Of a stretch of DNA of 64,000 bases, positions 2-39,701 are shown piece by piece. The position numbers were made by a program, and so were the translations under genes. Each line of letters opens with the position of its first letter. Within the stretch, counting starts at the first letter, position 1. This stretch comes from Desulfobacteraceae bacterium (GTDB lineage Bacteria; Desulfobacterota; Desulfobacteria; Desulfobacterales; JAABSP01), in assembly GCA_011390135.1 (NCBI GenBank), contig JAABSZ010000003.1, positions 470 to 64,469 on the forward strand, read 5' to 3'. The notes beneath the pieces were generated by a model. It searched no databases. It saw nothing but the letters and a program-made list of their open reading frames with translations, and was not told where the DNA came from.

Positions 2-694
2 CTATCCGAGGACACCCTTGAAGAGTACCAGCATCCAGTAGGAGACGAGAACCAGGCCCAGGATTAGGCGGAGGGGGAGTTTTCTTTCTGTCTGCGCCTT
101 TTGTCCGCCGGGATCGTTCGATGCACTATAGGTCTCCACATCGGCTTCGGAATCCCTTGCTTTGGCTCTCGGATCTGCCCCCACCGCCACAATGGAGAGT
201 TCAAAGATCAGCCATTGGGTCACCACCAGCGCTGGCCCTGAAAACCTGCGGCCCGAAATCTGCCGCTCCTCTCCGGCCGGCACCGGACAGGAATCGAGAT
301 AGAAGCAGCCCACGGAAAAATCGGTCAGATGCCCCTCCCGCACCTTCTGTGCTGCGCTCAACCCTGCCGGTGTTCTGGAGAAGAAGACATCGCACTCCAG
401 GACATTGTCTGCAATTTCAAAATTCCGTGCGCTCCCCAGGATGGCGGAGACCGTGGAGCGGTCATGGGAATCGAGCAGGGGAACCTGCCCTTTTCTCGGG
501 ATCATCACGCCGCTCATGAGGGTGATGACCGGGACAGGTTCTTTGAAATGGGCGGTATATCGCAGAATCGGTTCTTCGGTCTTGGCCACCACCCGCACAG
601 AAAGCGTATTGGGATTGAAGGTTGCGGGCTTCGGAAACGCGGTGGGAAGAAATCGTTCCGACAGTCGAAGATACTCTTCGTAATCGAGTGTCAT
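2..694 (-). CDS. HK97-type prohead serine protease-like protein (peptidase S78/U35-like) with C-terminal hydrophobic tail; partial, 3' end beyond window
   Basis: Track ORF 2..694. Blocks PLLDSHD..ILG, GHLTDFSVGC and FELSIVAVGADPRAKA resemble the His, Ser and C-terminal blocks of prohead proteases. ATGA start/stop overlap with the upstream radical SAM gene (691-694). No stop before the window edge. Confidence 0.5.
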   Translation of the reverse strand: MTLDYEEYLRLSERFLPTAFPKPATFNPNTLSVRVVAKTEEPILRYTAHFKEPVPVITLMSGVMIPRKGQVPLLDSHDRSTVSAILGSARNFEIADNVLECDVFFSRTPAGLSAAQKVREGHLTDFSVGCFYLDSCPVPAGEERQISGRRFSGPALVVTQWLIFELSIVAVGADPRAKARDSEADVETYSASNDPGGQKAQTERKLPLRLILGLVLVSYWMLVLFKGVLG

Positions 695-7750: not shown

Positions 7751-8911
7751 TTATCCGGGGATCAGCCGCCCCTTGTTTCCCTCTTTCTCCTCGATCCCCT
7801 TGTGGATGACCATACTCTTTCCGATCCGCTTCCCATCTTTATAGACATCCGGATCATGCCGTCTTCGGCTTCCGCCTGTCGATCGAATCCTGCGATACCG
7901 ATACTTCATATACGCCTTGAGCTGGGGATCACCCACCAGCACCGGGGAGTATTCAATGGGATCTTTTGCCTCGAGCTGCTGATCCAGCTTGTCCATGAAC
8001 CCATTGATGATCCCGATGGCAAAGTCGGTCTTCCGGTGGAGAGTAAGCCCCTTGTCCCGATTGTACCGCTCCCATTCCGCGTCGATGAAGCGGGAGACAA
8101 AATCATGGACATAGGCGGCCATCTCTACATTCTGCTGGGTCCCGCTGATCTCCATGACCCGGCCCCGTTTTCCTTTTTCCAGCACAAAGATCGGAACCCA
8201 GATCCCCTGCACGAAATAGTGGTTGATGAGCAGATTGGCCAGAAGGGACTCATCCTGGCGATGGCGCAGTCCGGGGCGGCCGATCCGGGTGGTGATGAAA
8301 TCCCGGCGCTCTGTCCGGTTGAGCATATCCAGATTGTGCTTTGCAATGAGATCGTGAGCTTTTAGCATCGCGGCCTCGGCCTCATGGCGGTTGCTGCTCC
8401 GGGCCAGGGAGAGGAGTTTTTGAACCCGGCTCAGGATCTGATCGGCCGGGTCTTTGGGGCCCACAGACTGCTCCAGTCCCGGGAAGCGGCCAGCAGCCGC
8501 AGGGTCCGCTCGGAGCATATCGCAGGCCCTTCGGAAGGTCGGCCCGTGGGGAGTCTCGTCCGCGTCTCTTCCCAGCAAGTCGGCCAGTTGATGTGCCATC
8601 TCATGCAGCAGCACCTGCCGAACACTTTCCCAGGGGTGATGCAAAGCAAATTCCCGGCTGATGCAGATCTCCCCCCATTCTTTTGACCATTGGCCCACCC
8701 GCCGGGTCGTATCCGCCAGCCGAAAGATCGGCTTTTTCATCAATCTTCTCACTCCGGAATCGAGTACCCAGAGCCCCAGCTCCCATTCGCAGGAGAGCCC
8801 TTCCAGAATCCGCCGCTCCAGGGCGATCTGCACCGATGCCGCATCCGTTCCTTTTTCCATTTTCCTTTTGATCCCCTCCTTTTTGATCCCCTCCTTATTG
8901 TTCCTCTTCAC
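7751..8911 (-). CDS. SprT-like zinc metalloprotease domain plus DUF2786-like domain protein
   Basis: HExxH (LLHEMAHQL) in the N-terminal SprT-like region. DUF2786-like helix ILSRVQKLLSLARSSNRHEAEAAMLKAHDLIAKHNL. The start may be the internal Met18. Confidence 0.7.
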   Translation of the reverse strand: MKRNNKEGIKKEGIKRKMEKGTDAASVQIALERRILEGLSCEWELGLWVLDSGVRRLMKKPIFRLADTTRRVGQWSKEWGEICISREFALHHPWESVRQVLLHEMAHQLADLLGRDADETPHGPTFRRACDMLRADPAAAGRFPGLEQSVGPKDPADQILSRVQKLLSLARSSNRHEAEAAMLKAHDLIAKHNLDMLNRTERRDFITTRIGRPGLRHRQDESLLANLLINHYFVQGIWVPIFVLEKGKRGRVMEISGTQQNVEMAAYVHDFVSRFIDAEWERYNRDKGLTLHRKTDFAIGIINGFMDKLDQQLEAKDPIEYSPVLVGDPQLKAYMKYRYRRIRSTGGSRRRHDPDVYKDGKRIGKSMVIHKGIEEKEGNKGRLIPG

Positions 8912-9536: not shown

Positions 9537-10892
9537 ATGTTTCTGGAAATCATCCGATCCGAGGGACTGGCGCACCTGTCCTATCTCATCGGCGACGGCA
9601 ACAGTGCCGCGGTGATCGATCCCCGCCGGGATGTGGAGGTCTATATCGAGACCGCACACTGCAAGGGCGCGCAGATCAGACACATCTTCGAAACCCACCG
9701 GAACGAGGACTATGTCATCGGCTCCAAGGATCTGGCAAGGCGAACCGGGGCCGAGATCTACCACGGCAAACAGCTCGATTTCAATTACGGCAACCCCGTC
9801 TCTGAGGGGGATACCTTTGAACTGGGGGGCATGAAGCTCAAGATCCTGCACACGCCGGGTCATACGGATGAGAGCATATCGATCGCGCTCTACGACACCC
9901 AGTACGGCGACAAGCCGGTCGGGGTCTTCACCGGCGATCTCCTCTTCATTGGCCAGGTGGGCCGCACCGACTTCTATCCGGACCGGGCCTGGGAAGTTGC
10001 CGGCCTCCAGTACGACAGCATCTTCAAAACACTGCTGCCGTTAGGAGATCAGGTGATCCTCTACCCGGCCCACGGCGCGGGATCGGTCTGCGGCTCCGGC
10101 ATGGCCTCCCGGGAATTTTCCACCCTGGGCTATGAGCGGCAGTTCAATCCGGCCTTACAGCAGGACCGGGAAGGCTTCATCGAGAGCAAGGTGAGCCAGA
10201 AGCCGTACCAGCCCCCCTATTTCCGGATGATGGAGAAGTACAACCAGGAGGGGCCCCCGCGCCTGGACATGCTGCCCCGGCCCAAGCCCTGTCTTCCGGG
10301 CGCGTTTGAAAAGCTCATTGAAAAGGGCGCGCAGGTACTGGATCTGAGAAGCCCCGAGGCCTTTTCCGGAGCCTATGTTCCAGACAGCTATGCCATGTCT
10401 TTGGGCATCCTGCCCGGATTTGCCGGATGGTTTCTCGACTACGAAAAAGATATCGCGCTGGTGGCCAATGACTGCAACGAGGTGGACAAGGCCGTGAAGC
10501 TCCTCATCCGGCTCGGATACGACCGGATTATCGGCTATCTCGACGGCGGGATGGAGACCTGGGAGACCTCGGGCCGGGATTACGGGCAGATGCCGTCGGT
10601 CTATGCCGGAGATATCCGAAAGCTTCAGGAAAAGGGATATCTTCTGCTCGATGTCCGGGAGAAGGAGGAATGGGAATCGGGACACCTCAAGGACGCGCAG
10701 CACATCTATGTGGGAGAGCTTCCGGACAATCTGGATAAAGTGCCCCGAGATAAGCCCGTCATCACCTTCTGCGGCAGCGGAAGAAGAGCCATCATCGCAG
10801 CCTCCATCCTGAAGCAGAACGGCTATGACCATGTGGAGAACTGCCTCGGCTCCATGGCCGCATGCCAGAAGTCCGGATGCCAGATCGTTTAG
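9537..10892 (+). CDS. MBL-fold persulfide-dioxygenase-like protein fused to rhodanese domains
   Basis: N-terminal glyoxalase II/ETHE1-like domain (HTPGHTDES). C-terminal rhodanese with active-site loop FCGSGRRA. Confidence 0.85.
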   Translation: MFLEIIRSEGLAHLSYLIGDGNSAAVIDPRRDVEVYIETAHCKGAQIRHIFETHRNEDYVIGSKDLARRTGAEIYHGKQLDFNYGNPVSEGDTFELGGMKLKILHTPGHTDESISIALYDTQYGDKPVGVFTGDLLFIGQVGRTDFYPDRAWEVAGLQYDSIFKTLLPLGDQVILYPAHGAGSVCGSGMASREFSTLGYERQFNPALQQDREGFIESKVSQKPYQPPYFRMMEKYNQEGPPRLDMLPRPKPCLPGAFEKLIEKGAQVLDLRSPEAFSGAYVPDSYAMSLGILPGFAGWFLDYEKDIALVANDCNEVDKAVKLLIRLGYDRIIGYLDGGMETWETSGRDYGQMPSVYAGDIRKLQEKGYLLLDVREKEEWESGHLKDAQHIYVGELPDNLDKVPRDKPVITFCGSGRRAIIAASILKQNGYDHVENCLGSMAACQKSGCQIV

Positions 10893-10907
10893 ATAAAGGA
10901 GGATTTC

Positions 10908-11579
10908 ATGACAAAAACGGATTATGGCTTTCAGGGCCTTATGCTGATGCTTCTGATCGCAACCCTGCTGCTGCTTTGCGTCGATTTTCAAGCCGCATGG
11001 GCAGAGGTCGGAGAGAAGGCCGCGATCCATGAAGCAATGGGACCGGTGGAGACCGAAGGCAATCCCCTGACCCGAAAGCGCTGGTCCCCTTACACCACCG
11101 GGATCGCCATCGGTGTTCTGAGCTGGCTCGCGTTTCTGCTCATAGGCAAGGGGCTCGGCGTATCGAGTTCCTACGCCAAAACCAGCGGAATGGTGGAAAA
11201 GGCCGTAAAGGGAGAGAAGGTTTATGAGATCGAGTATTATCAGGAGAAAACTCCTAAGATCGACACCGGATGGATGCTCGTCTTCGGCATCATCATCGGC
11301 GCATTTCTGTCGGCAAGGCTCTCCGGCGACTTTCAACTGACCGCGATTCCTCCCCTCTGGAAAGAGATGTTCGGAGACAATGTGCTGATCCGGATCATCG
11401 TCGCGTTTATTGGAGGCATGGTACTGATCATCGGCGCGAGATGGGCCCGGGGATGCACAAGCGGACATGGGATCACCGGAACCCTCCAGCTTGCCGTCAG
11501 CAGTTGGATGGCGCTTTTTGCCTTTTTTATCGGCGGAGTGATAACCGCCTATCTTCTCTATGCGGTCTCGGCTTTATAG
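10908..11579 (+). CDS. YeeE/YedE family sulfur-compound transport protein
   Basis: Multi-TM protein with the GCTSGHG motif typical of the YeeE/YedE (sulphur transport) family. Confidence 0.8.
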   Translation: MTKTDYGFQGLMLMLLIATLLLLCVDFQAAWAEVGEKAAIHEAMGPVETEGNPLTRKRWSPYTTGIAIGVLSWLAFLLIGKGLGVSSSYAKTSGMVEKAVKGEKVYEIEYYQEKTPKIDTGWMLVFGIIIGAFLSARLSGDFQLTAIPPLWKEMFGDNVLIRIIVAFIGGMVLIIGARWARGCTSGHGITGTLQLAVSSWMALFAFFIGGVITAYLLYAVSAL

Positions 11580-11617
11580 AAAAGGCTGCAGGCTGAAAAA
11601 GTATTCAGGAGAGAGAA

Positions 11618-12175
11618 ATGCTTGATAAACTGCACGAAAACAGACCGGCACAGCTCATCATCGGTCTTTTCATCGGAATCCTCTTCGGCTTCTTCCTGCA
11701 GAAGGGGCAGGTGACCAGATACGAAGCCATTGTTGGCCAGTTGCTGCTTATGGATTTTACGGTGTTGAAGGTGATGCTCACCGCGATTATCACCGGCATG
11801 ATCGGGGTCTATTCCCTGCGGGGAGTGGGCCTTGTGGAACTCAAGATCAAGCCCGGCTCATGGGGCGCGACCGGCATCGGCGGGCTCATCTTCGGCGCGG
11901 GCATGGCTATTCTTGGTTACTGCCCCGGAACCACCACCGGTGCTGTGGGGCAAGGATCATTGGACGCGCTTGCAGGCGGCATCACCGGGATGATCGTCGG
12001 CGGCATGGTCTATGCCCGGATCTACCCGAAGATCAAGGACAACATCCTGCAAAAGGGCGACTTTGGAAAGCTGACCCTGCCGGAATGGTTCCACGCCACC
12101 ATCCCCGAGGCCGTTGTGGGGGTTATCATGATCGGCCTCACGGTATTTGCAGCCCTTGAAATGGCAGGACTATAA
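11618..12175 (+). CDS. YeeE/YedE family protein (second half-transporter)
   Basis: Multi-TM with the GYCPGTTTGA motif. Immediately follows the first YeeE-like gene. Confidence 0.8.
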   Translation: MLDKLHENRPAQLIIGLFIGILFGFFLQKGQVTRYEAIVGQLLLMDFTVLKVMLTAIITGMIGVYSLRGVGLVELKIKPGSWGATGIGGLIFGAGMAILGYCPGTTTGAVGQGSLDALAGGITGMIVGGMVYARIYPKIKDNILQKGDFGKLTLPEWFHATIPEAVVGVIMIGLTVFAALEMAGL

Positions 12176-13574: not shown

Positions 13575-13749
13575 TCCAAATCTCCTTTTGCCTATCGATT
13601 CTTCGATTCATTCAAAGGGTGACTCCTACGCTATCTCCGATGCACTGTCAAGTCCGGATCCTGCCTAATCCTGCTTGACATCGATCTGTTTTCGGGATAT
13701 GCCCTTTTCAGTTATTATAGCGGAATTACCCCTATCCCGGGAGGAAAAA

Positions 13750-14139
13750 ATGGACAAGCTCAACATCGTATCCTTTGGCGCAGAAGACATCGAAAACGTG
13801 CTGGCAAAGATGGATCAGAAAAACCTGGATGGACTCCCCTTCGGTGCGATCCAGCTCGACGGTTCGGGAAAGATCCTCTCCTACAACGCCACCGAGGGCG
13901 TCATCACGGGCCGAAAGCCTGAAGAGGTGATCGGCAAAAACTTCTTCGACGAGATCGCGCCCTGCACCAAGCGGCCCGAGTTCTACGGCGTCTTCAAAGA
14001 GGGGGTGAAGCAGGGAAAGCTCAACACCATGTTCGAATACGTCTTCGACTACAAGATGAAGGCCACCAAGGTGAAGGTCCACATGAAAAAGGCTTTGGTG
14101 GGAGACAGCTACTGGATCATCGTCAAACGGCTGCTCTGA
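13750..14139 (+). CDS. pyp: photoactive yellow protein (PYP)
   Basis: 129 aa, collinear with Halorhodospira PYP as I recall it. Tyr45, Glu49, Thr53, Arg55 and Cys72 correspond to Y42, E46, T50, R52 and C69. RBS GGGAGG at 13738-13743. Confidence 0.9.
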
Positions 14140-14144
14140 GATCT

Positions 14145-15305
14145 GTGGAAGAAATCGAACTCCCCCCATCGACTATCCTTCGGACCCTTGCGGACCTAAC
14201 CCATCAGCTCCTGAGCGGTGGCCGAGGGGGGAACGAAGAACTACCGCCGCCCTGGGAATGGGACGAAAAGACTCCGGTGGGCAAAGGCGGGCTCGAAGCC
14301 GATTCCATCGAGCGGCTCACACTTTGCGCCGGCATCAACCGGATGTACCACCTCCACGAGGCCGGCATCGAGGATTATCTTCTCCGGGCAAAGAGCATCG
14401 GAGAGTGGGCTGAGATCGTCGAAGAAGGCCGAAAGCGCAATTCCAAAGCCATCACCTTCACCACATCGGGGACCACAGGAGAGCCAAAGCCCTGCGCCCA
14501 CTCATGGGCAGGACTTCTCCAGGAGATCGATTTTCTCCAAACCCTCTTTCCCCATGCCCGGCGGATCATCCGCACCCTCCCCTGCCATCACATCTACGGC
14601 TTTCTCTTCACGGTCCTTCTGCCGCTTCAGATGAAGATCCCGGTCACAGATCTCCGGGGAAGAAGTTTTTCCGGTTTGGCTTCAGGCGATCTCATCGTCT
14701 CCTTTCCCCTCTACTGGCGCTATCTTGTCGATTCAGGAATTCCCTTTCCCAAAGAGGTTTTCGGCGTCACCTCCACAGCCCCCTGCCCCGAAGAGCTTCC
14801 CGAGCAGTTGAAATCCCAAAACCTTCAGAGACTCACCCAGATATACGGATCATCCGAAACCGGCGGCATCGGTCATCGAACCGAACCCGAATCCCCGTTC
14901 CAACTTTTCCCCCACTGGAAAAAAGCCGGGGAGGAAAAGCTGCTGCGAACACTTCATGACCCAAAAAAAGAAGAGCCGGTCACACTTCAGGACCGGCTCA
15001 ACTGGATGGCAGAGGATCGGTTTCTGGTTCTGGGAAGGCGGGACTGCTGCATTCAGGTTGGGGGCATCAATGTTTCCCCAGAAGCCGTTGCAGAAAAGAT
15101 CTGTGGGCATCCCCTGGTGGAAAGCTGCTCGGTCTGGCCCGGCAGCCAGAAGCCGGAACCCCGCGTTTCAGCAGAGATCATCTTACAAAAAGGCACCTTC
15201 CCCACACCGGAAGTCAAAAAAGCCCTCCGTCAATGGCTCCGGGAAAACCTCCCCCCTGCCCAGCGCCCGACGGACATCTCTTTCAAGCCTTCTTCCGAGT
15301 CCTGA
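14145..15305 (+). CDS. pcl: p-coumaroyl-CoA ligase-like AMP-dependent synthetase
   Basis: AMP-binding motif TSGTTGEPK and later YGSSETGG. GTG start 5 nt after the pyp stop. Short (~386 aa) acyl-CoA ligase, like pcl genes linked to pyp. Confidence 0.7.
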   Translation: MEEIELPPSTILRTLADLTHQLLSGGRGGNEELPPPWEWDEKTPVGKGGLEADSIERLTLCAGINRMYHLHEAGIEDYLLRAKSIGEWAEIVEEGRKRNSKAITFTTSGTTGEPKPCAHSWAGLLQEIDFLQTLFPHARRIIRTLPCHHIYGFLFTVLLPLQMKIPVTDLRGRSFSGLASGDLIVSFPLYWRYLVDSGIPFPKEVFGVTSTAPCPEELPEQLKSQNLQRLTQIYGSSETGGIGHRTEPESPFQLFPHWKKAGEEKLLRTLHDPKKEEPVTLQDRLNWMAEDRFLVLGRRDCCIQVGGINVSPEAVAEKICGHPLVESCSVWPGSQKPEPRVSAEIILQKGTFPTPEVKKALRQWLRENLPPAQRPTDISFKPSSES

Positions 15306-15504: not shown

Positions 15505-15513
15505 TGTCCTTTC
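15443..15513 (+). repeat. 9-bp periodic GTCCTTTNN motif block (locus 1 of 3)
   Basis: gtcctttat gtcgtttcc ... gtcccttat gtcgtttat gtcctttag gtcctttgtcctttc. The same motif recurs at 19549-19588 (reverse complement, coding) and 51885-51928. Confidence 0.8.
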
Positions 15514-16147
15514 AATCAACCGAAGAAAGCCCCAGAATCTCAACCATCTGTTCCAACCGCGTAATATGAAAATCGGCCTGAAGATCCCGGTTGTCATAGG
15601 CCACAAAACAGATATTTGCGCCCTTGGCCGCGGCCTCATCCACCGAAGAATCCCCCAAATAGATCGCCTCATGGGGCCCAACCCCGAAATGCTCCATCAC
15701 CCGAAAAAGCTGTTCCGGATGCGGCTTTGGCCGCTTTACATCCCGCGCGGTCACAATCAGATCAAAAGCATCCGACAGCTCAAACGCCTCCACCACCCGG
15801 GGCATGGTATCTGACCGGTTCGTCGCCACAGCCGTCTTGTACTCAGGCTTCAGCCTCTTTATCAGCGCCATCAGCCCCGGCTCGATGATCATCTCCGGAA
15901 TAAAGGGATCATATCCCATCTCCTTCCGGTACTTCTGCGCGGCCTCGAACTCCTTCTCGTCCGGAAAGAGGTGCGCAATGGACTCGTCTGCCGTATGCAT
16001 ATGGACATAGGCAAACTGCTCCCCGGTCATCTCCGGCTTGTTGAATCTGGCCAACACCCGATTGTAATAGGATTTATTGGCCTGCACAGTATCGAATAGA
16101 ACCCCGTCGCAGTCGAAGATCACAACCCTGATCGAATTCATGTTCAT
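15512..16147 (-). CDS. HAD-superfamily hydrolase (phosphatase-like)
   Basis: Motif I FDCDGVLFDT; later VATNR and GDSSVD motifs. Confidence 0.85.
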   Translation of the reverse strand: MNMNSIRVVIFDCDGVLFDTVQANKSYYNRVLARFNKPEMTGEQFAYVHMHTADESIAHLFPDEKEFEAAQKYRKEMGYDPFIPEMIIEPGLMALIKRLKPEYKTAVATNRSDTMPRVVEAFELSDAFDLIVTARDVKRPKPHPEQLFRVMEHFGVGPHEAIYLGDSSVDEAAAKGANICFVAYDNRDLQADFHITRLEQMVEILGLSSVD

Positions 16148-16163
16148 TGGAGATATTCATCAT

Positions 16164-16213
16164 AAAAAAACCGGCGCGCGGGAGAGCCCGAAAAAGGGCT
16201 TTACGCGCGCCGG
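16164..16213 (-). terminator. rho-independent terminator after the DUF1573-like gene
   Basis: Perfect 10-bp GC stem CCGGCGCGCG/CGCGCGCCGG (16171-16180 / 16204-16213) with an inner hairpin, followed on the minus strand by U7 (16164-16170). Confidence 0.6.
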
Positions 16214-16279
16214 AAAATGTTTTTTAAATATTTCGGAAAAACAGACCTTCCCGAAAAAAGCTTTTGCCTTACAAGTGCT

Positions 16280-17014
16280 TTACGAGCCCTTCTGCTCCAC
16301 CACCGGCTCAAAGATGTTGCCGTAAACACTGATCCGAATCTCCGGCTTCATCTTGCTGTCGGTCTTTAAAATCACCGTATCGAAATACCGGCTCTTCTCC
16401 TGCCGGAGGTTTTCGATGGTCAGGACATATCCCTTCTTCTGCCCCTGCTCGGTCTCTTCGAGCAGGATCTTGATATCCCCCTCCTTGTTGATCTGCACAT
16501 CGGTGATCTTGAAAGGATACTTCTCTTCGGGAAAGATCGTCACCTTCTGGATCACGGGCTGCCCCGCGGGGCCATTCAACCGCACCCGGGTCTGGGAGAT
16601 GGAGGCGAACTTCTCCACCTGACCCATAATGGTCAGGGTGAGCCTGCTGTTCTTCGGATCATTGGTATGAACCGTGGCAGACTTTTTCAGGGTTCTGCCG
16701 CCAAATCCATTGGTATTGACCTTGAGCTTGACTGTTCCCTCGCCACCGGCGGGGATCTGCCTCGTGTAGGAGGCCGCTGTACACCCTCAGCCGGTCTGGA
16801 CTTTTTGAATCTCCAGCGGTGCGGTCCCGGTGTTTTTGATCACAAAATCATGGATCACCTCATCCCCCTCCACCGTGGGAGGGAACTGGAACTCTGCATC
16901 GGGAACCACTGCATCGGGGGCCCCCTGACCCTCCGCATCCGCTGCCCCGAATGCGGCCGATGCAAAAAGCGCGATGAAAAGCGTCATCGCAAGAGCGCAT
17001 ATTTTTCTTTTCAT
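16280..17014 (-). CDS. DUF1573-like secreted protein with in-frame TGA (candidate selenocysteine) at 16787-16789
   Basis: Track ORFs 16787..17059 and 16280..16627 share a frame. Hand translation of the gap shows TGA as the only stop. The read-through gives ...EIQKVQTG-U-GCTAASY... Signal peptide present; RBS AGGAG at 17021-17027 before ATG 17014. Confidence 0.55.
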
Positions 17015-17180
17015 ACCTGCTACTCCTTTTTCAATTCTCTGGTAAAGTTTTTCGGCCATCTTTAAAAAGACGGCTTTTTCGGATAATTAACCTTAACCTG
17101 CATGGACATTTGCCATATGTGCAGTTTATCCATCTAAGGCCGGGGAGTCAAGAGCCATCTGAACCGTTTCAAAAAGAGCA

Positions 17181-17209: not shown

Positions 17210-17297
17210 GAATCGAAAATCTGCGGGCAGAAGCCGGCAACCTTTGGAAACGAACGCAGTAAACTATCGACAATCAGAATCAAAAGCGACATCCGGA

Positions 17298-17351
17298 CCA
17301 CGAAGGTCATCCGTATCATGAAGGTGCGGGCTGAAGTTCGTGGTTTTTTTT
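17298..17351 (+). promoter_or_regulatory. leader hairpin plus T8 tract (possible attenuator or riboswitch expression platform)
   Basis: CCACGAA (17298-17304) pairs with TTCGTGG (17337-17343) and is followed by TTTTTTTT (17344-17351), about 20 nt before the RBS and GTG of the first transporter gene. Confidence 0.35.
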
Positions 17352-17371
17352 GTCGGAAAAAGGAGAAAATC

Positions 17372-18151
17372 GTGAAAAAAGGAATGTTTTTCGGGCTTCT
17401 GGCAGCAGTTCTGGTTCTTCTTTCCACAGGCGCGGCAAATGCTCACTTCGGGATGCTCATCCCGTCCGACTCCATGGTGATGCCGGAGGAGGAGCGGGCC
17501 GTTCATCTGATCCTCGCGTTCACCCACCCCTTTGAGGGGATCGGCATGGAGATGGAAAAGCCGAAAGCCTTCGGAGCCTATCTGGATGGAGAGAAGACGG
17601 ATCTCACGGATCGGCTCAAAAAGACCAAAGTGATGGACAATACCGCATGGGAGGCCGACTATCCACTCAACCGGCCCGGGGTCCACACCCTTTATATGGA
17701 GCCCGCGCCCTACTGGGAGCCGGCCGAAGACAGCTTCATCATCCACTACACCAAAACCGCAGTGGCCGCATTCGGCGATGAGGAAGGATGGGACGCTGAA
17801 ATCGGATTGAAGACCGAGATCGTCCCCCTGGCCCGGCCATTTGGCCTCTATGCCGGGAACCTCTTCCAGGGGATTGTAAAGCTCGACGGAAAGCCTGTCC
17901 CCTTTGCCGAGGTGGAGGTGGAGTATTACAATCAGGACGGAAAAACGATCCCCGAGACCGACTACATGATCACCCAGATCGTCAAGGCCGACGGAAACGG
18001 CCTCTTCTCCTACGCTCCTCCTGCGCCGGGATGGTGGGGATTTGCCGCGCTGAACAGCGCAGATTATACCCTCCCCCAGAACGGCCAGGAGAAGGCCGTG
18101 GAACTGGGCGCGGTGATCTGGGTCCGGTTTACGGAATGGAAGACAAAATAG
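17372..18151 (+). CDS. DUF4198-family periplasmic protein (Ni/Co uptake accessory component)
   Basis: Signal peptide then HFGMLIPSD, typical of DUF4198. GTG 17372 preceded by AAGGAGA. First gene of the cbiM-Q-O cluster. Confidence 0.7.
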
Positions 18152-18175
18152 CAGAAACAGGATAAGGAACCCCGA

Positions 18176-18781
18176 ATGCATATCGCAGAAGGCGTACTCT
18201 CGGGCCCCGTCATCGCGGCCGGCATGGCCGTTGCCGGGGCCGGCACAGCCATCGGGCTGAAACAACTCGATTTCGACCGGATCGCCCAGACCGGCATCCT
18301 GTCGGCCTCCTTTTTCGTGGCCTCCCTGGTCCATGTGCCGGTCGGCCCCTCCAGCGTCCACCTCATCCTCAACGGGATCGTGGGGCTGATGCTCGGCTGG
18401 GCCGCATTCCCCGCGATCCTGGTGGCGCTTGTACTCCAGGGAATTCTCTTTGGATTCGGCGGCATCACCACACTGGGGGTCAACACCGTGATCATGGCAG
18501 GACCTGCGGTGATCTGCCATTATCTCTTCGGCTTCATGATTCCCAAAAAGCCCCCGATCTCCCTTACGGCAGCGTTCGGCTGCGGCGCGCTGTCGGTCTT
18601 TTTTGCGGCCATCTTTGTGGGGCTTGCCCTGGTCTTCACCCAGGAGAGCTTTATAGAGGTCTCCGGCGCTGTGGTCGCGGCCAATCTGCCGGTGATGATC
18701 ATCGAGGGAATTATCACCGCCTTCTGCGTGGCATTTTTAAAAAAGGTGCAGCCTTCGCTGCTGCCCGGTTATCCCGGATAA
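18176..18781 (+). CDS. cbiM: ECF transporter substrate-specific component CbiM/NikM
   Basis: N-terminus MHIAEGVLS, characteristic of CbiM/NikM. Multi-TM. Confidence 0.85.
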   Translation: MHIAEGVLSGPVIAAGMAVAGAGTAIGLKQLDFDRIAQTGILSASFFVASLVHVPVGPSSVHLILNGIVGLMLGWAAFPAILVALVLQGILFGFGGITTLGVNTVIMAGPAVICHYLFGFMIPKKPPISLTAAFGCGALSVFFAAIFVGLALVFTQESFIEVSGAVVAANLPVMIIEGIITAFCVAFLKKVQPSLLPGYPG

Positions 18782-32239: not shown

Positions 32240-32590
32240 CTGGTCTAAGATTACGGTGGAGACCCGTATGCTTGCTATTTCGCACCCGGGTCTGCTGCCT
32301 TCCGCTACGGATAAAGCGTCGGCTTTCCCCTCCGATTGTCCGGAAGGTTATCCTGATGTCCACAACTATACCCATTTAGGGACTAAATACAAAGCCTGAA
32401 ATCTCGCTCCATCCGGCTTCGGACTCCCGTTGCCGGGTTTGCCCTAAAATTTCGCTTCCGGCCTGCCGGCTACGCTTTTACCGGGTGGGACTTGCGCTTC
32501 CACGCTCACCCACTGGGAAACATTACCGCATTTCAGGAATCTTCGCTCCTTTCCAACGGTCTGAGTTTAACTTGACACAAATCCTTATGG
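32240..32590 (-). ncRNA. candidate large structured RNA or RNA fragment (group II intron domain-I-like?)
   Basis: GC-richer non-coding block with many nested helices. The loops are GNRA-type only on the minus strand: GCGU-GGAA-GCGC, CCCG-GCAA-CGGG, GGG-CAAA-CCC. Long-range pair CCUGAAAU/AUUUCAGG (32531-32538 / 32394-32401). No credible ORF. Confidence 0.35.
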
Positions 32591-33351: not shown

Positions 33352-35904
33352 CTATTCATTTAGCACAGCTTCTAATGTTGTCTTAAATTCATTTTCGTTT
33401 GCATTGTTATAGAACGGAACTCCGGTTATCAAATACTTATCTGTGTCGATTTTGATACTCTTTTTTTCCTCACGGATTTCTTTTAAAAATTCCTCTTTCC
33501 ATTTGTCGTGAGCAACCAGATGATTCCCTTTCGGTTCAATGAATACCTGATATGTCAGTTCTTTGCCTTTTTTCTGTTTGCAGAATAAAATGAAGTCCGG
33601 TTCAAAGGCCCGACCTGATTTGTCTATGATTTTTACTTCTCGTTCGTTACGGATGAGATAAATATTTTTGAATTTCTTGTCCAAATGATCAAAACGTCTG
33701 GCAAACATTTTCACAAATTCTTTTTCTTCGCTTGTTCCGTAATTGGCATTGTATACATACCACTTAGGTTCACTCACAACATCAAACTGCCCATCTGCCC
33801 GCTCACTGTCTTTGTAAACTTTAATCTCTTTATCTTTAAATACATCATGGATGTATTCCTTAAAATAGTCTGAGCCTTCGTATTCGGTCAGGTTGGATTT
33901 AATTTCGCTTTCTATGCTTTGCAACAAACCTTGAATAACCATTAAATAATCAAAATTGGTTATTTCTTCCAATCTTGTTTTTGTTCCGTTGAATGTAATT
34001 TCCAACCCGCCTAAAAAATCATTACTTACAATGAAATTCGATAAGGATTCGACATTGGGAAAATACCGTTCTAAGCTGTCAAAGTAGTAAAATGGGTTTT
34101 GGGTTAATCCATAGCGAATGATGTGTCTTGGAATAACTGAAACAGATATATCTTTTTGCAAAATCTTCCCTGTGTCTCCGTTTTCTTCTTCTTTGGTAAA
34201 CATTCCTGACATTTTTCCAATGCCTGAAGAAAGGGTGTGGCTGAAATTTCGTTTTGCAACACCTAAGTCTGCAAATGATCTTACATTATCATAGCTCTTT
34301 TCCACTTTTTTATTGTAAACTACTTTACCAGTTTTGTAAAAATTGGTTTTCTTGAATTCGAGTTTGAGCGTAAGCTGTTTGGTTTCCAGATTGTCTTCGT
34401 CTTCGTAAATGCCTGTATCCATAAGCGCCTGTTTCAATTCTGAAATATATCGGCTATCTTCTTTGGTGTGGTAATACAGTTCTTCAAGAATTTTCAAATT
34501 ATTGGCGGTATCATCATCAAATTTTCGGGTGTATTTGTCCTGACCTTCCTCTAAAGCAAATGGAAAGTACCTTGCGCCCCTACCCACCAATTGCGCTTCT
34601 GAAATAGTTGTCTTTCCGGGTTTTCCAGCCTTGCCGTCCCGCCCTTCATACAAACGGACAATATCAAACAAGTTCAGCACATCCCAACCTTCATTGAGTT
34701 TCTGAACGGCAAAAACGGCACGTATCGGGTTATTTTCATCTTCCAACGTGTTCAGGCGGATTTGATTGAGTTCAGCTTCTTTATCGTTATTGGCACTGAT
34801 ACAGTAATCTTCTCTAAAGTTGGATTTAATGCGTTTGGCAATTTCGGAAGACGATAATCCTTTGGCTTCAAAAAAGGCAAAGGCTTTTTGCACAACTGAA
34901 ACGGTGGATGTTTTCTGAATTTGCTCCACCATTTCAGCCGAAAAATCATCTATCAGATGATGAAATCTTTCTTTGTTTTCTTCTGATTCTTTGATGGTTC
35001 GTTTGGCTTTGAAAAGGATGACCGGCTTTAAATTGATATTATGTTCGGTAGCCAATTCCTGACGGTATAAATTCAAAATCAACGCCTGAATGATGCGGTC
35101 TTGTTCGTCATACAAAGAACGGATAAGATTAATTTCTTTGGAATACTTGTCAATTCTGAATTGAGACAAATCGTATTTGTAAATAACCTTGTCTTTGTAC
35201 TTCTCGGTGATTTGTCGGCTATCATAATCCAATGTAGCGGTAAACTCCAAAAGCAGATTTTCAAAATTCTGCTGCAGCAGTTCCATTACCGTACCTTCCC
35301 AACTGCCAAACAGGTCTCCGTTTTTTTTTGTGCCGGAACTTAAATGGTGCGCTTCATCAGCTATTAAAATTATTTTACGACTTTCAAAATCTTCGTAGGT
35401 GATACTGTTTTCTTTGGTATTGTTCAGGTCAATGTGTAATTGCTGAATAGTGGTAAACTTGATATTGATGTTCTCGTTATCAGCTTCCTCAAAATTTGCC
35501 ACTTCTTTAATCAGTACCTCTTTACGGTCCACTACAATTTTATTGCTGAACAAGTATTTGCTTGCCTGCGGGTTAAGAAAATTATCTTTGGTTTTGTTGA
35601 TGATGTTGTTGCTGTTCACAAAAAACAGAAAGCTACGGTAGCCTTTTTCAAACAAATAGAGCATCAAGCCCGCCATTATCAAGGTCTTTCCGCTTCCGGT
35701 CGCCATATTATAAAGCAGATGAATCGGTTTTTTTGGCTTTCCCTCAAAGTCTTCCGTGGCTACATAAATATGGCGTTTGAAGGCTTCTGTCTGATAGGGG
35801 CGAATGTCAAACTTGAGATTGTCGGTAATGTAATTGGGTATGTCAACATGAGCCAATTCCTTACGGGCAAACGGATTATCAAACATATTGTGCAAATACG
35901 CCAT
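33352..35904 (-). CDS. res: type III restriction endonuclease subunit Res
   Basis: Helicase motif I MATGSGKT and motif II ADEAHH. C-terminal PD-(D/E)xK-like FEPDF...FIEPKG. 6 nt downstream of mod. Confidence 0.9.
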   Translation of the reverse strand: MAYLHNMFDNPFARKELAHVDIPNYITDNLKFDIRPYQTEAFKRHIYVATEDFEGKPKKPIHLLYNMATGSGKTLIMAGLMLYLFEKGYRSFLFFVNSNNIINKTKDNFLNPQASKYLFSNKIVVDRKEVLIKEVANFEEADNENINIKFTTIQQLHIDLNNTKENSITYEDFESRKIILIADEAHHLSSGTKKNGDLFGSWEGTVMELLQQNFENLLLEFTATLDYDSRQITEKYKDKVIYKYDLSQFRIDKYSKEINLIRSLYDEQDRIIQALILNLYRQELATEHNINLKPVILFKAKRTIKESEENKERFHHLIDDFSAEMVEQIQKTSTVSVVQKAFAFFEAKGLSSSEIAKRIKSNFREDYCISANNDKEAELNQIRLNTLEDENNPIRAVFAVQKLNEGWDVLNLFDIVRLYEGRDGKAGKPGKTTISEAQLVGRGARYFPFALEEGQDKYTRKFDDDTANNLKILEELYYHTKEDSRYISELKQALMDTGIYEDEDNLETKQLTLKLEFKKTNFYKTGKVVYNKKVEKSYDNVRSFADLGVAKRNFSHTLSSGIGKMSGMFTKEEENGDTGKILQKDISVSVIPRHIIRYGLTQNPFYYFDSLERYFPNVESLSNFIVSNDFLGGLEITFNGTKTRLEEITNFDYLMVIQGLLQSIESEIKSNLTEYEGSDYFKEYIHDVFKDKEIKVYKDSERADGQFDVVSEPKWYVYNANYGTSEEKEFVKMFARRFDHLDKKFKNIYLIRNEREVKIIDKSGRAFEPDFILFCKQKKGKELTYQVFIEPKGNHLVAHDKWKEEFLKEIREEKKSIKIDTDKYLITGVPFYNNANENEFKTTLEAVLNE

Positions 35905-35910
35905 AATGTC

Positions 35911-37887
35911 CTACTTTCCGAGTTGGTAAAAATCTTTGGTTACTTGCTTTTCCTCAACCGTGCAGGCAAAGTCTTTATCGTTGAGTGAAGAAAGGTTTAC
36001 ATAGAGTTGGTTTTTGTCCAGTATTTCGCAAAGATGCTGTTTCTGTTCTTTCAGCGAAAGGGCTTTGAATTCTTCTATGTGTTCTTCCTGCTTTTTGATG
36101 TCCACATTGTAGTTCAGGAATGATTTGGCTTTCATCTGTTTCCAAATTTGCAAAAGTGTTCCAGAGTCTTTGGCTGATTCAATCTGCTCGATAAAAGTTT
36201 GGTTGTATTTTTTGAGTTCGAGATAAACAAATTCGCCACCACCTTGCCAATTAACAAATTTTGAAATTCCACCTTGCTCACCATCAATAACTTTTTTGAG
36301 CCTTTCCACCGCCACAGTTTCTACATAATCCATTTGCTCAATGCCTATGTATTGGCGGTTCATTTTATGGGCAACTGCAGCAGTGGTGCCACTGCCTAAA
36401 AAGAAATCCAAAACAATATCATCTTCATTGGTAGAGTATTCTAATATTCTCTGAAGAAGAAGTTCATTTTTGGGATAGTCAAACTTTTTTTCCCCAAATA
36501 GGGCAACCATCTCATCCGTACCTACTTTGTTAAATGTTTCTGTACCAAGTAATTCATTCTTTACTTTATTCAAAAAGTCGGAGGAAATATAGGTCTTGTC
36601 AAAATCTTCACCATTCTTTTCAATTTCTTCAGATTTGAAAATGCGCATTGCAGGAATGGTAATCTTCAAAAAATCATAATCACCAGGAAAAACAATTTTA
36701 CCCTTTCTGTAAAATTCTTCGAAAGTTTCAACTGTTACACTCCAACATCTATTAGGGTTCACAGGATATTCATCCCCATTTTTAGGGTTAACCATTGTGA
36801 AGTTCGAATTAGGTCTTTCAATTATTGACCTTTGTGTAGTCAAATCTGAAAGCCTCCATTCATCATTAGGATAATCATCACTCTTTTGATACCTTCGCTC
36901 AATAGCTCTTTTGAAAAGTTGTGTTGCTTTTGATGCTAACTTAGTATAAACAAGCATCCAATCAAAATCCTGAGAAAGTTTCCACGGTACATCCGATTTA
37001 CCGCTTCGTGTTTTTCTTGGTATAGTTGCAATAAACCTATCTCTTCCAAAAACTTCGTCAGCAACAATTTTTAAATAATGCAACTCCTGGTCTCCAATAT
37101 GTATGAAAATGACACCTTCTTTACTTAACAATTCTTTTGCAGCATAAAGTCTGTTTTTTATGAAAGTAAGCCAAGAAGAATGATTGAAACTGTCATTGTA
37201 TTTGAAACTATCAGAATCACTATTATAAGGCGGGTCTATGTAAATCAGTTTTACTTTTCCGGAAAATTTTTCTCTCAACGTGTGCAAAGCTAAAAGGTTG
37301 TTGCCTTTTATAATCAGGTTGTCGGTTATAGTGCCGTTTTCGTTTCGGTTAAATTGGTCAAGTGGTTTTTCTCCGTCCTTGTCAATTCGTTTGGCGTTGG
37401 TTAAAACTTTCGGCTCTAAAAGTTGGGTAATTTCATCCTGAACCAGAATTTCATTGAAGAAAATTTCTTCTCGTTTGTCTTCTTCACGGCTTTGTCCGCC
37501 TTCCAGAATGCAGTCTTTAAAAGGCCATACCAAAGCCACTTCGTTGCGTTGTTTCAGGTATTTGCCGTCAATGGTCAGTCCAACCTTGTTTTTGTATTGG
37601 GTGTAGCTGTCATTCAGATAGTTTTTCTGCTCCAAAAACTGCACAAACAAGTTTTGGTTAAAAACCAATGTGCCTTTCACGTCCACAAAGAATTTCTCTT
37701 TCAACTTTTGATTGTCCAATAGCAATTCAATCAATTCGGCATCACAGTTTTGCGCTTTATGTATCACTACCCACTTTTTTAATTCGCCATTGTCCGTCAC
37801 AAAATTGGGTTCGTTTTTGAGTTGATTTTCTAATGTTTTGTAAAGTTTCATATCTTCCTTATATTGTTTCGAGACTGATTTAGGCAT
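35911..37887 (-). CDS. mod: type III DNA methyltransferase subunit Mod (N6-adenine, beta-class order)
   Basis: Motif IV IYIDPPYN precedes motif I DFFLGSGTTA. The size and central variable region are typical of Mod. Confidence 0.9.
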   Translation of the reverse strand: MPKSVSKQYKEDMKLYKTLENQLKNEPNFVTDNGELKKWVVIHKAQNCDAELIELLLDNQKLKEKFFVDVKGTLVFNQNLFVQFLEQKNYLNDSYTQYKNKVGLTIDGKYLKQRNEVALVWPFKDCILEGGQSREEDKREEIFFNEILVQDEITQLLEPKVLTNAKRIDKDGEKPLDQFNRNENGTITDNLIIKGNNLLALHTLREKFSGKVKLIYIDPPYNSDSDSFKYNDSFNHSSWLTFIKNRLYAAKELLSKEGVIFIHIGDQELHYLKIVADEVFGRDRFIATIPRKTRSGKSDVPWKLSQDFDWMLVYTKLASKATQLFKRAIERRYQKSDDYPNDEWRLSDLTTQRSIIERPNSNFTMVNPKNGDEYPVNPNRCWSVTVETFEEFYRKGKIVFPGDYDFLKITIPAMRIFKSEEIEKNGEDFDKTYISSDFLNKVKNELLGTETFNKVGTDEMVALFGEKKFDYPKNELLLQRILEYSTNEDDIVLDFFLGSGTTAAVAHKMNRQYIGIEQMDYVETVAVERLKKVIDGEQGGISKFVNWQGGGEFVYLELKKYNQTFIEQIESAKDSGTLLQIWKQMKAKSFLNYNVDIKKQEEHIEEFKALSLKEQKQHLCEILDKNQLYVNLSSLNDKDFACTVEEKQVTKDFYQLGK

Positions 37888-39624: not shown

Positions 39625-39701
<77 letters not shown>

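Follow-up and report, generated by a model that had tools for sequence, protein, structure and literature searches.

A TGA codon conserved at a cysteine position almost certainly encodes selenocysteine in a predicted secreted OS_HP2/DUF1573 protein of the Desulfobacterales

In 2007 Zhang and Gladyshev described OS_HP2 ("Olavius symbiont's hypothetical protein 2") as a new selenoprotein family, its source being the delta1 and delta4 delta-proteobacterial symbionts of Olavius algarvensis (PMC1976440, Table 2). The family appears in the GOS study as pfam07610 with a UxC motif (PMC2398784), and OS_HP2/DUF1573 is given with a UGC motif in later papers (PMC9312934, PMC13188914); these listings under PF07610, with UxC or UGC, date to 2008, 2022 and 2026. 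A curated OS_HP2 model, NF041425, is kept by NCBI. OS_HP2 is not among the families for which a SECIS was illustrated in the 2007 paper (PMC1976440, Fig. 5 legend), and in the literature we found no experimental report of selenium incorporation for any member of the family. Cys-type DUF1573 proteins are found in Bacteroidota and Planctomycetota (the fold resembles that of PDB entry 2qsv, from Porphyromonas gingivalis).

The gene described here, on the minus strand of the window (the whole 64-kb stretch of Desulfobacteraceae DNA that was analysed), is an ordinary member of this already known selenoprotein family. It shares with OS_HP2 of the Olavius symbionts the domain, a U-G-C motif in which Sec takes the place of the first Cys of CGCT, and a sulfate-reducing host of the Desulfobacterales type, and differs from it in nothing essential. 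With the Cys-type DUF1573 proteins it has in common the Ig-like/ASH beta-sandwich, the signal peptide and the CGCT motif; those proteins, however, carry Cys in place of Sec and have no hairpin H1 (see below), and many of them are longer and multi-domain. The locus thus represents one further catalogued, uncharacterised, predicted exported selenoprotein from the selenoprotein-rich Desulfobacterales. What is added here is that the Sec form is the majority state in the two-domain group, that a HAD-family hydrolase gene is a conserved neighbour, and that the region 3' of the UGA holds two hairpins outside the consensus bSECIS model. The features of the locus are as follows:

17023 to 17027, minus strand: ribosome-binding site AGGAG, 8 nt 5' of ATG 17014
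16280 to 17014, minus strand: OS_HP2/DUF1573 selenoprotein gene (PF07610, NF041425), 244 codons plus TAA, with predicted Sec at codon 76
16946 to 17014, minus strand: predicted Sec-type signal peptide, residues 1-23, MKRKICALAMTLFIALFASAAFG, read from the sequence
16613 to 16906, minus strand: DUF1573/OS_HP2 domain, residues 37-134, the first Ig-like beta-sandwich, which carries UGC (PF07610, NF041425)
16787 to 16789, minus strand: in-frame TGA, predicted Sec codon 76, forming a U-G-C motif with Cys78 and aligned to the first Cys of CGCT
16759 to 16774, minus strand: hairpin H1, GCCUC-CUACAC-GAGGC, stem 12 nt and loop 17 nt after the UGA; best SECIS candidate
16736 to 16755, minus strand: hairpin H2, 8 bp, one A bulged, apical GGU beginning 39 nt after the UGA; overlaps the IPAGGEG codons
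16283 to 16612, minus strand: C-terminal second beta-sandwich, residues 135-244; no Pfam family, conserved in all two-domain orthologues
16164 to 16213, minus strand: intrinsic terminator, a 10-bp G+C-rich stem followed by U7
15512 to 16147, minus strand: HAD-family hydrolase gene (PF13419, 116 bits), directly downstream of OS_HP2

Translation of positions 16280-17014 gives one frame, running from ATG 17014 to the TAA at 16280-16282, in which the TGA at 16787-16789 is the sole internal stop; the peptide around codon 76 reads ...EIQKVQTG*GCTAASYTRQIPAGGEG..., with the TGA marked by the asterisk. In the mechanical list of open reading frames the gene appears as two pieces, 16787..17059 and 16280..16627, both on the minus strand. 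An initial annotation, made from the letters alone, had placed these pieces in a shared frame of 244 codons with a lone TGA, and our retranslation gave the same result. The gene is likely to start at ATG 17014 rather than at the upstream ATG 17059, because the AGGAG, noticed earlier and located here at 17023-17027, is suitably spaced from the former and because the orthologues, too, start with MK or MR followed directly by the signal peptide, a comparable hydrophobic stretch being present at the N-terminus of all of them. The N-terminus had also been read as a signal peptide, and MKRKICALAMTLFIALFASAAFG is indeed built like a Sec-type signal; neither a twin-arginine motif nor a lipobox is visible in it by eye. 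At the other end of the gene, the proposed terminator of its own was borne out by folding: the 3' region containing the stem and the U7 tract folds with z = -4.5 relative to shuffled sequences. The long compound loop of this terminator kept a simple consensus scanner from detecting it. A promoter scan returned a single promoter-like match, at 17151-17123, no better than chance.

For the profile searches, the U in the window protein was replaced by C. The protein matches Pfam PF07610 (DUF1573) with E = 6e-19 and 68.3 bits (cutoff 26.1), so that the family identity given in the initial annotation was correct. The match to NCBIfam NF041425, "OS_HP2 family (seleno)protein", is stronger still (147 bits against a cutoff of 100; E = 1.6e-43) and covers positions 1-98 of the 98 in the model. 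In the homologue alignment the column of TGA codon 76 is that of the first Cys of CGCT, in agreement with the U-G-C motif that had been proposed. A confident AlphaFold2 model was obtained for a Cys orthologue, P0002, which is 49% identical to the window protein; it consists of two beta-sandwich domains (pLDDT 92.5, pTM 0.78), and its CGC, at residues 73-75, occupies the turn that links strands 64-71 and 76-80. Foldseek searches against the PDB returned only generic HYDIN/ASH/Ig tandem domains, together with the uncharacterised Porphyromonas entry 2qsv, and comparison by sequence brought up no meaningful PDB entry; neither search yielded a catalytic clue.

A locus search with the single protein as query, allowing one genome per species, returned 37 loci. 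One of them (L001), from the Desulfobacteraceae MAG S15.Bin039, codes for a protein identical to that of the window. A further 29 are orthologues of 41-54% identity from Desulfobacterales, Desulfobacteraceae, Desulfocicer, Desulfosudis, Desulfonema and Desulfatibacillum MAGs, and the other seven are distant matches from other phyla or orders; in three of these, from Hydrogenedentota, Cyclobacteriaceae and Saprospiraceae, the motif could be located and is CGCT. All 30 close orthologous loci, from different Desulfobacterales genomes, have TGA at the codon-76 column. Apart from this codon the frame is open in each of them: a signal peptide lies upstream and, unless the contig stops short, 159-215 codons follow. 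This conservation is far beyond chance.

Among 86 homologues in the protein database, 60 gene calls begin just past the TGA column, at residues equivalent to 81-115; at the column itself, 21 entries have Cys, four have Trp (P0001, P0003, P0005 and P0009) and one has Glu. The Cys forms (P0002, P0004, P0006, P0007, P0008, P0010, P0011, P0014, P0015, P0026 and P0039, and distant ones) include orthologues that are single proteins of 234-271 aa. Predicted Sec orthologues and Cys homologues thus both exist for OS_HP2/DUF1573, and among these sequences it is the Sec form and not the Cys form that is the majority state in the two-domain orthologue group. The initial annotation had pointed to a homologue alignment as a check on its reading; the alignment has both a conserved Cys column and Sec orthologues, with TGA in 30/30 loci.

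The truncated entries raise the question of whether the UGA simply terminates translation, yielding a secreted peptide of 75 residues and, from the internal ATG 16627, a second, C-terminal protein. Both products are represented in the mechanical list of open reading frames and, as seen above, C-terminal-only gene calls are numerous in the databases. The internal starts of these calls are scattered, however, from residue 81 to residue 115, and this variation marks them as artefacts of the gene callers. Moreover, termination at codon 76 would halve the DUF1573 beta-sandwich and leave the C-terminal piece without a signal peptide, and the Cys-form orthologues span both pieces in one polypeptide. 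We regard the synthesis of two products as very improbable.

No more credible, to our mind, is that the UGA is recoded as something other than Sec, either because TGA means Trp or Gly throughout the genome or because near-cognate read-through inserts Trp or Cys. The four entries with Trp at the column would be in line with this. TGA, however, is an ordinary stop here: it ends 18 of the 40 open reading frames of at least 150 aa in the window and is the commonest normal stop there, which excludes a reassigned code. The Trp entries themselves trace back to loci where the codon is simply TGA: P0001 shares 93% identity with what L027 encodes, and the DNA of L027 has TGA at this position. They are therefore artefacts of gene calling under code 4. 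In addition, the presence of Cys at this column in homologues makes a classic Sec/Cys pair, and the lineage is one with large selenoproteomes (PMC1976440).

The sequence 3' of the TGA was examined for structure in an alignment of 27 Sec forms, from -9 to +75 around the UGA, and each sequence was also folded separately. The two hairpins that the initial annotation had drawn there, H1 and H2, are present, at 16759-16774 and 16736-16755, in both the minimum-free-energy and the centroid folds. H1 folds in 30/30 fetched Sec-form loci, with energies of -6.1 to -10.9 kcal/mol, and shows compensatory changes at two pairs (UA/UG/CG at pair 26-42 and CG/UA/UG at pair 27-41); its covariation score lies above those of all 500 shuffles and of all slid controls. 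In L011 and L013-L015 the 5-bp stem is kept with its register shifted by 3 nt. The loop, CUACAC in the window, is YUAYAC in most orthologues. No H1-equivalent stem was found in eight Cys forms, the five orthologues L038-L042 and the distant L030, L035 and L036. In L038-L042 the corresponding region folds with 0 to -3.5 kcal/mol and by different pairings, the stem having been lost through changes such as Arg/Lys (AGR/AAA) to Asn/Gln and Ser TCN to AGC. Every Sec form thus has H1 and none of the eight Cys forms does, which makes H1 specific to the former.

H2, whose 8 bp are broken by one bulge and whose loop is GGN, likewise occurs in every Sec form, at -6.5 to -12.5 kcal/mol. The hairpin overlaps a conserved peptide, IP(P/A)GGEG, of which the Pro and Gly codons are inherently complementary, and it is kept in the closest Cys form, L038, at -11.0 kcal/mol; its persistence there indicates that coding accounts for H2 at least in part. 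On the other hand, L018 has the 8-bp bulged stem in spite of a different peptide, PPDSEG, which argues for some selection on the structure of H2 as well. With its G-G/U apical loop and its bulge, H2 resembles the upper stem of the E. coli fdhF element. As regards the two hairpins, then, the structures proposed initially stand, but the emphasis then placed on the distal H2 does not, since the comparative evidence favours H1 as the Sec-specific element.

The evidence for an RNA element is comparative and not thermodynamic, as the z-scores are modest: the sequence folded alone shows no significant advantage over its shuffles (z = -0.74), and shuffling of synonymous codons gave z mostly of about -1 to -2.6. 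RNAalifold returned an uninformative consensus for the 27-sequence alignment, because several lineages hold the hairpins in shifted registers.

That the TGA is a nonsense mutation in a decaying Cys-type DUF1573 gene, or a miscalled TGC or TGT, would need only one base change and would fit with the splitting of the gene into two by gene callers, but it is effectively excluded, its likelihood being close to nil, by the identical TGA column in 30/30 orthologues from different genomes and by the presence of the same TGA in L001, a related but non-identical assembly with only two differences, both synonymous, across the 735-nt gene even though its neighbouring proteins are 93-98% identical to those of the window, as well as by the lack of further lesions, the conservation of the protein on either side of the stop and the Sec-specific nature of H1. 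The occurrence of the TGA in this second assembly also bears on the base call, for which a check against the reads had been advised, and, together with the conservation of the codon and the distribution of H1, it upholds the earlier proposal of Sec over decay. We conclude that the in-frame TGA is real and that it almost certainly encodes selenocysteine in a predicted secreted protein. Positions 16280-17014 should accordingly be annotated as one selenoprotein gene, and neither as two open reading frames nor as a pseudogene; the identical mis-call recurs in dozens of database entries, counting the 60 truncated ones and the four with Trp for the codon.

Both hairpins were compared with the consensus for bacterial SECIS elements (PMC13188914, Fig. 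2A), which specifies an apical loop 3-9 nt long, 4-16 bp in the upper stem, a minimum free energy no higher than -7.5 kcal/mol, a G within the loop's initial two positions and a distance from the UGA to the loop of 16-37 nt. For the energies, -8.3 kcal/mol for H1 and -12.5 kcal/mol for H2, the sequence of L001 was used, in which H1 is identical to that of the window and H2 departs from it at a single base, the third of the loop. By loop, stem and energy both hairpins agree with the consensus, H1 having a 6-nt loop and 5 bp, and H2 a 3-nt loop on a stem of 8 bp, 4 of them above the bulge. They part on the remaining two points: H1 lacks the loop G (CUACAC) and H2 has it (GGU), whereas H1, with its loop 17 nt from the UGA, is within the prescribed distance and H2, at 39 nt, exceeds the limit of 37. 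No single hairpin in the window sequence therefore fits the consensus on every point. In our own re-implementation of these criteria, distinct from the original program, 2 of the 31 Sec forms pass when all limits are applied as published, and 14 of the 31 when the spacing is relaxed to 40 nt; none of five Cys forms passes in either setting. Rfam returned nothing SECIS-like at the gathering threshold, nor in a permissive scan of positions 16650-16850. The search for a SECIS element, suggested in the initial annotation, thus gave a divided answer: conserved stem-loops do follow the UGA, one of them Sec-specific, but the consensus is not strictly matched and Rfam is silent.

The region is like a consensus bacterial SECIS in that a stem-loop lies within the coding sequence immediately 3' of the UGA, with H1 at the canonical distance (stem 12 nt, loop 17 nt); it is unlike one in that H1 is without a loop G and in that H2 lies 39 nt from the UGA. 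According to reviews, a subset of bacterial selenoprotein genes falls outside the consensus SECIS model (PMC9312934, PMC13188914). Tentatively, the OS_HP2 family may use a distinct, bipartite bacterial SECIS made up of H1, Sec-specific and covarying but without a loop G, and of H2, bulged, with a G-containing loop and 39 nt from the codon. In such an arrangement, which we consider possible but unlikely, H1 could be the SelB site itself or could fold so as to bring H2 within reach. If it exists, a bipartite element would explain both the misfit of OS_HP2 to the bSECIS model and its absence from Fig. 5 of the 2007 paper.

The genes for selA, selB, selD and tRNA-Sec were not found in the 64-kb window, where 40 of the 57 called open reading frames, mainly the larger ones, were scanned with NCBIfam and Pfam; the other 17, nearly all shorter than 200 aa, lay outside the family scan. 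Nor was there a second selenoprotein candidate among the TGA-interrupted frames in the window, which proved to be only adjacent or overlapping ordinary open reading frames.

Very probably, then, the locus is an intact OS_HP2 selenoprotein gene in which UGA76 is decoded as Sec under the direction of downstream mRNA structure; its product may be an exported redox protein of the cell envelope. SelB carrying Sec-tRNA-Sec would be recruited by the mRNA structure just 3' of UGA76, most likely at H1, with H2 possibly assisting SelB binding or supplying a G-loop contact. The precursor, of about 24 kDa, would, as its N-terminal sequence suggests, be secreted by way of the Sec translocon and lose its signal peptide. 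The mature protein, of about 22 kDa, is expected to comprise the two Ig-like beta-sandwich domains, with U-G-C exposed in a tight turn of the first. There, by analogy with CXC and UXC motifs, the Sec76/Cys78 pair would most likely cycle through a selenenylsulfide, as in an envelope thiol/selenol redox protein. Precedents for redox activity of a CXC motif are the CGC shuttle disulfide of Erv2p and the CXC peptides that mimic protein disulfide isomerase. As the function of the protein, we prefer a selenenylsulfide redox centre in the cell envelope, which we would put at about an even chance; binding of a soft metal is the alternative, and a less probable one.

As to the genomic setting, the neighbours upstream of OS_HP2 are not conserved across loci. 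Downstream, a HAD-family hydrolase gene follows directly in the Sec loci with enough flanking sequence and also in the Cys loci L038, L040 and L041; in L041, the OS_HP2 and HAD hydrolase genes overlap by 4 nt.

The genes around OS_HP2, the gene for the predicted DUF1573 selenoprotein, and the alternative RNA pairing around its UGA codon are as follows:

15512-16147 (-), HAD-family hydrolase, immediately downstream of OS_HP2
16667-17065 (+), 132-aa ORF, antisense to OS_HP2
16775-16789 (-), alternative pairing of UGA-GG with the 5' arm of hairpin H1 (columns 11-14 with 26-29 of alignment A3)
17264-18520 (-), 418-aa ORF, directly upstream of OS_HP2 and on the same strand

Among the genome loci used for comparison, a HAD hydrolase is also found directly downstream of OS_HP2 in L002-L029, L033, L038, L040 and L041, and this adjacency is conserved alike in loci with a TGA at the first Cys of the CGCT motif (Sec forms) and in those with a Cys codon there (Cys forms). 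In L041, OS_HP2 and the hydrolase gene share 4 nt; in the window, a terminator lies between them. The pair places the gene for a predicted exported protein beside one whose product is presumably cytoplasmic. The 418-aa ORF shows no match in Pfam or NCBIfam and, among the compared loci, has a counterpart only in the close relative L001, a Desulfobacteraceae MAG (93% identity). The antisense 132-aa ORF was rejected as a real gene: its apparent conservation by tblastn in orthologous loci mirrors that of OS_HP2 on the opposite strand, and the signal is thus a reflection of the conservation of the real gene, making this an artefact ORF.

RNAalifold analysis of the 27 Sec-form sequences aligned around the UGA (A3) proposes an alternative to H1, the Sec-form-specific hairpin that is the best SECIS candidate. 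In this alternative, the 5' arm of H1 (YYUC) would pair with GAGG of the UGA-GG stretch itself, in competition with H1. The pairing is kept in all 27 sequences, in which no informative covariation was found for it, since coding constraint leaves the UGAGG bases invariant. Two more stable hairpins are present in the OS_HP2 3' UTR, ahead of the terminator (16214-16285, -), one of which has a stem of 9-10 bp (UCGGGAAGG...CUUUUUCCGA).

Two further groups of genes are encoded on the plus strand:

9537-10892 (+), MBL-fold and rhodanese fusion protein
10908-11579 and 11618-12175 (+), two half-size YedE/YeeE/TsuA-like membrane proteins, after the MBL-rhodanese gene
13675-15305 (+), photoactive yellow protein (PYP) and 4-coumarate-CoA ligase-like genes (NCBIfam models)

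Both YedE/YeeE/TsuA-like proteins give weak, sub-cutoff matches to thiosulfate-transporter and "selenium metabolism YedE/FdhT" models, and the 9537-12175 segment, which lies some 4 kb away from OS_HP2, is possibly a gene cluster for the trafficking of sulfur or selenium. The PYP gene scores 198.6 bits on TIGR02373 (cutoff 143), and directly after it comes the ligase-like gene, whose 278 bits on TIGR02372 fall below the cutoff of 334. The two form a pair, photoreceptor plus chromophore activation, in the MAG of a Desulfobacteraceae sulfate reducer, and the same pair is present in L001.

Potentially mobile or phage-like elements comprise:

2-694 (-), prohead protease/major capsid fusion-like fragment (NF045541, E = 8e-24, far below cutoff)
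7751-8911 (-), protein with SprT-like, DUF2786 and DUF7168 domains
32241-32494 (-), group II intron D1-D4 RNA hit (RF02005, 67 bits)
33352-35904 (-), ResIII helicase of a type III restriction-modification pair
35911-37887 (-), N6_N4 methylase with a TypeIII_RM_meth domain, same pair
39625-39701, tRNA-Arg(tct)

The intron match adjoins the restriction-modification pair (33352-37887, -), and a 320-aa ORF without annotation abuts the tRNA (segment 38394-39701); together, intron match, pair and ORF may form a genomic island inserted at tRNA-Arg(tct). The features at 2-694 and 7751-8911 are phage-like remnants close to the window start.
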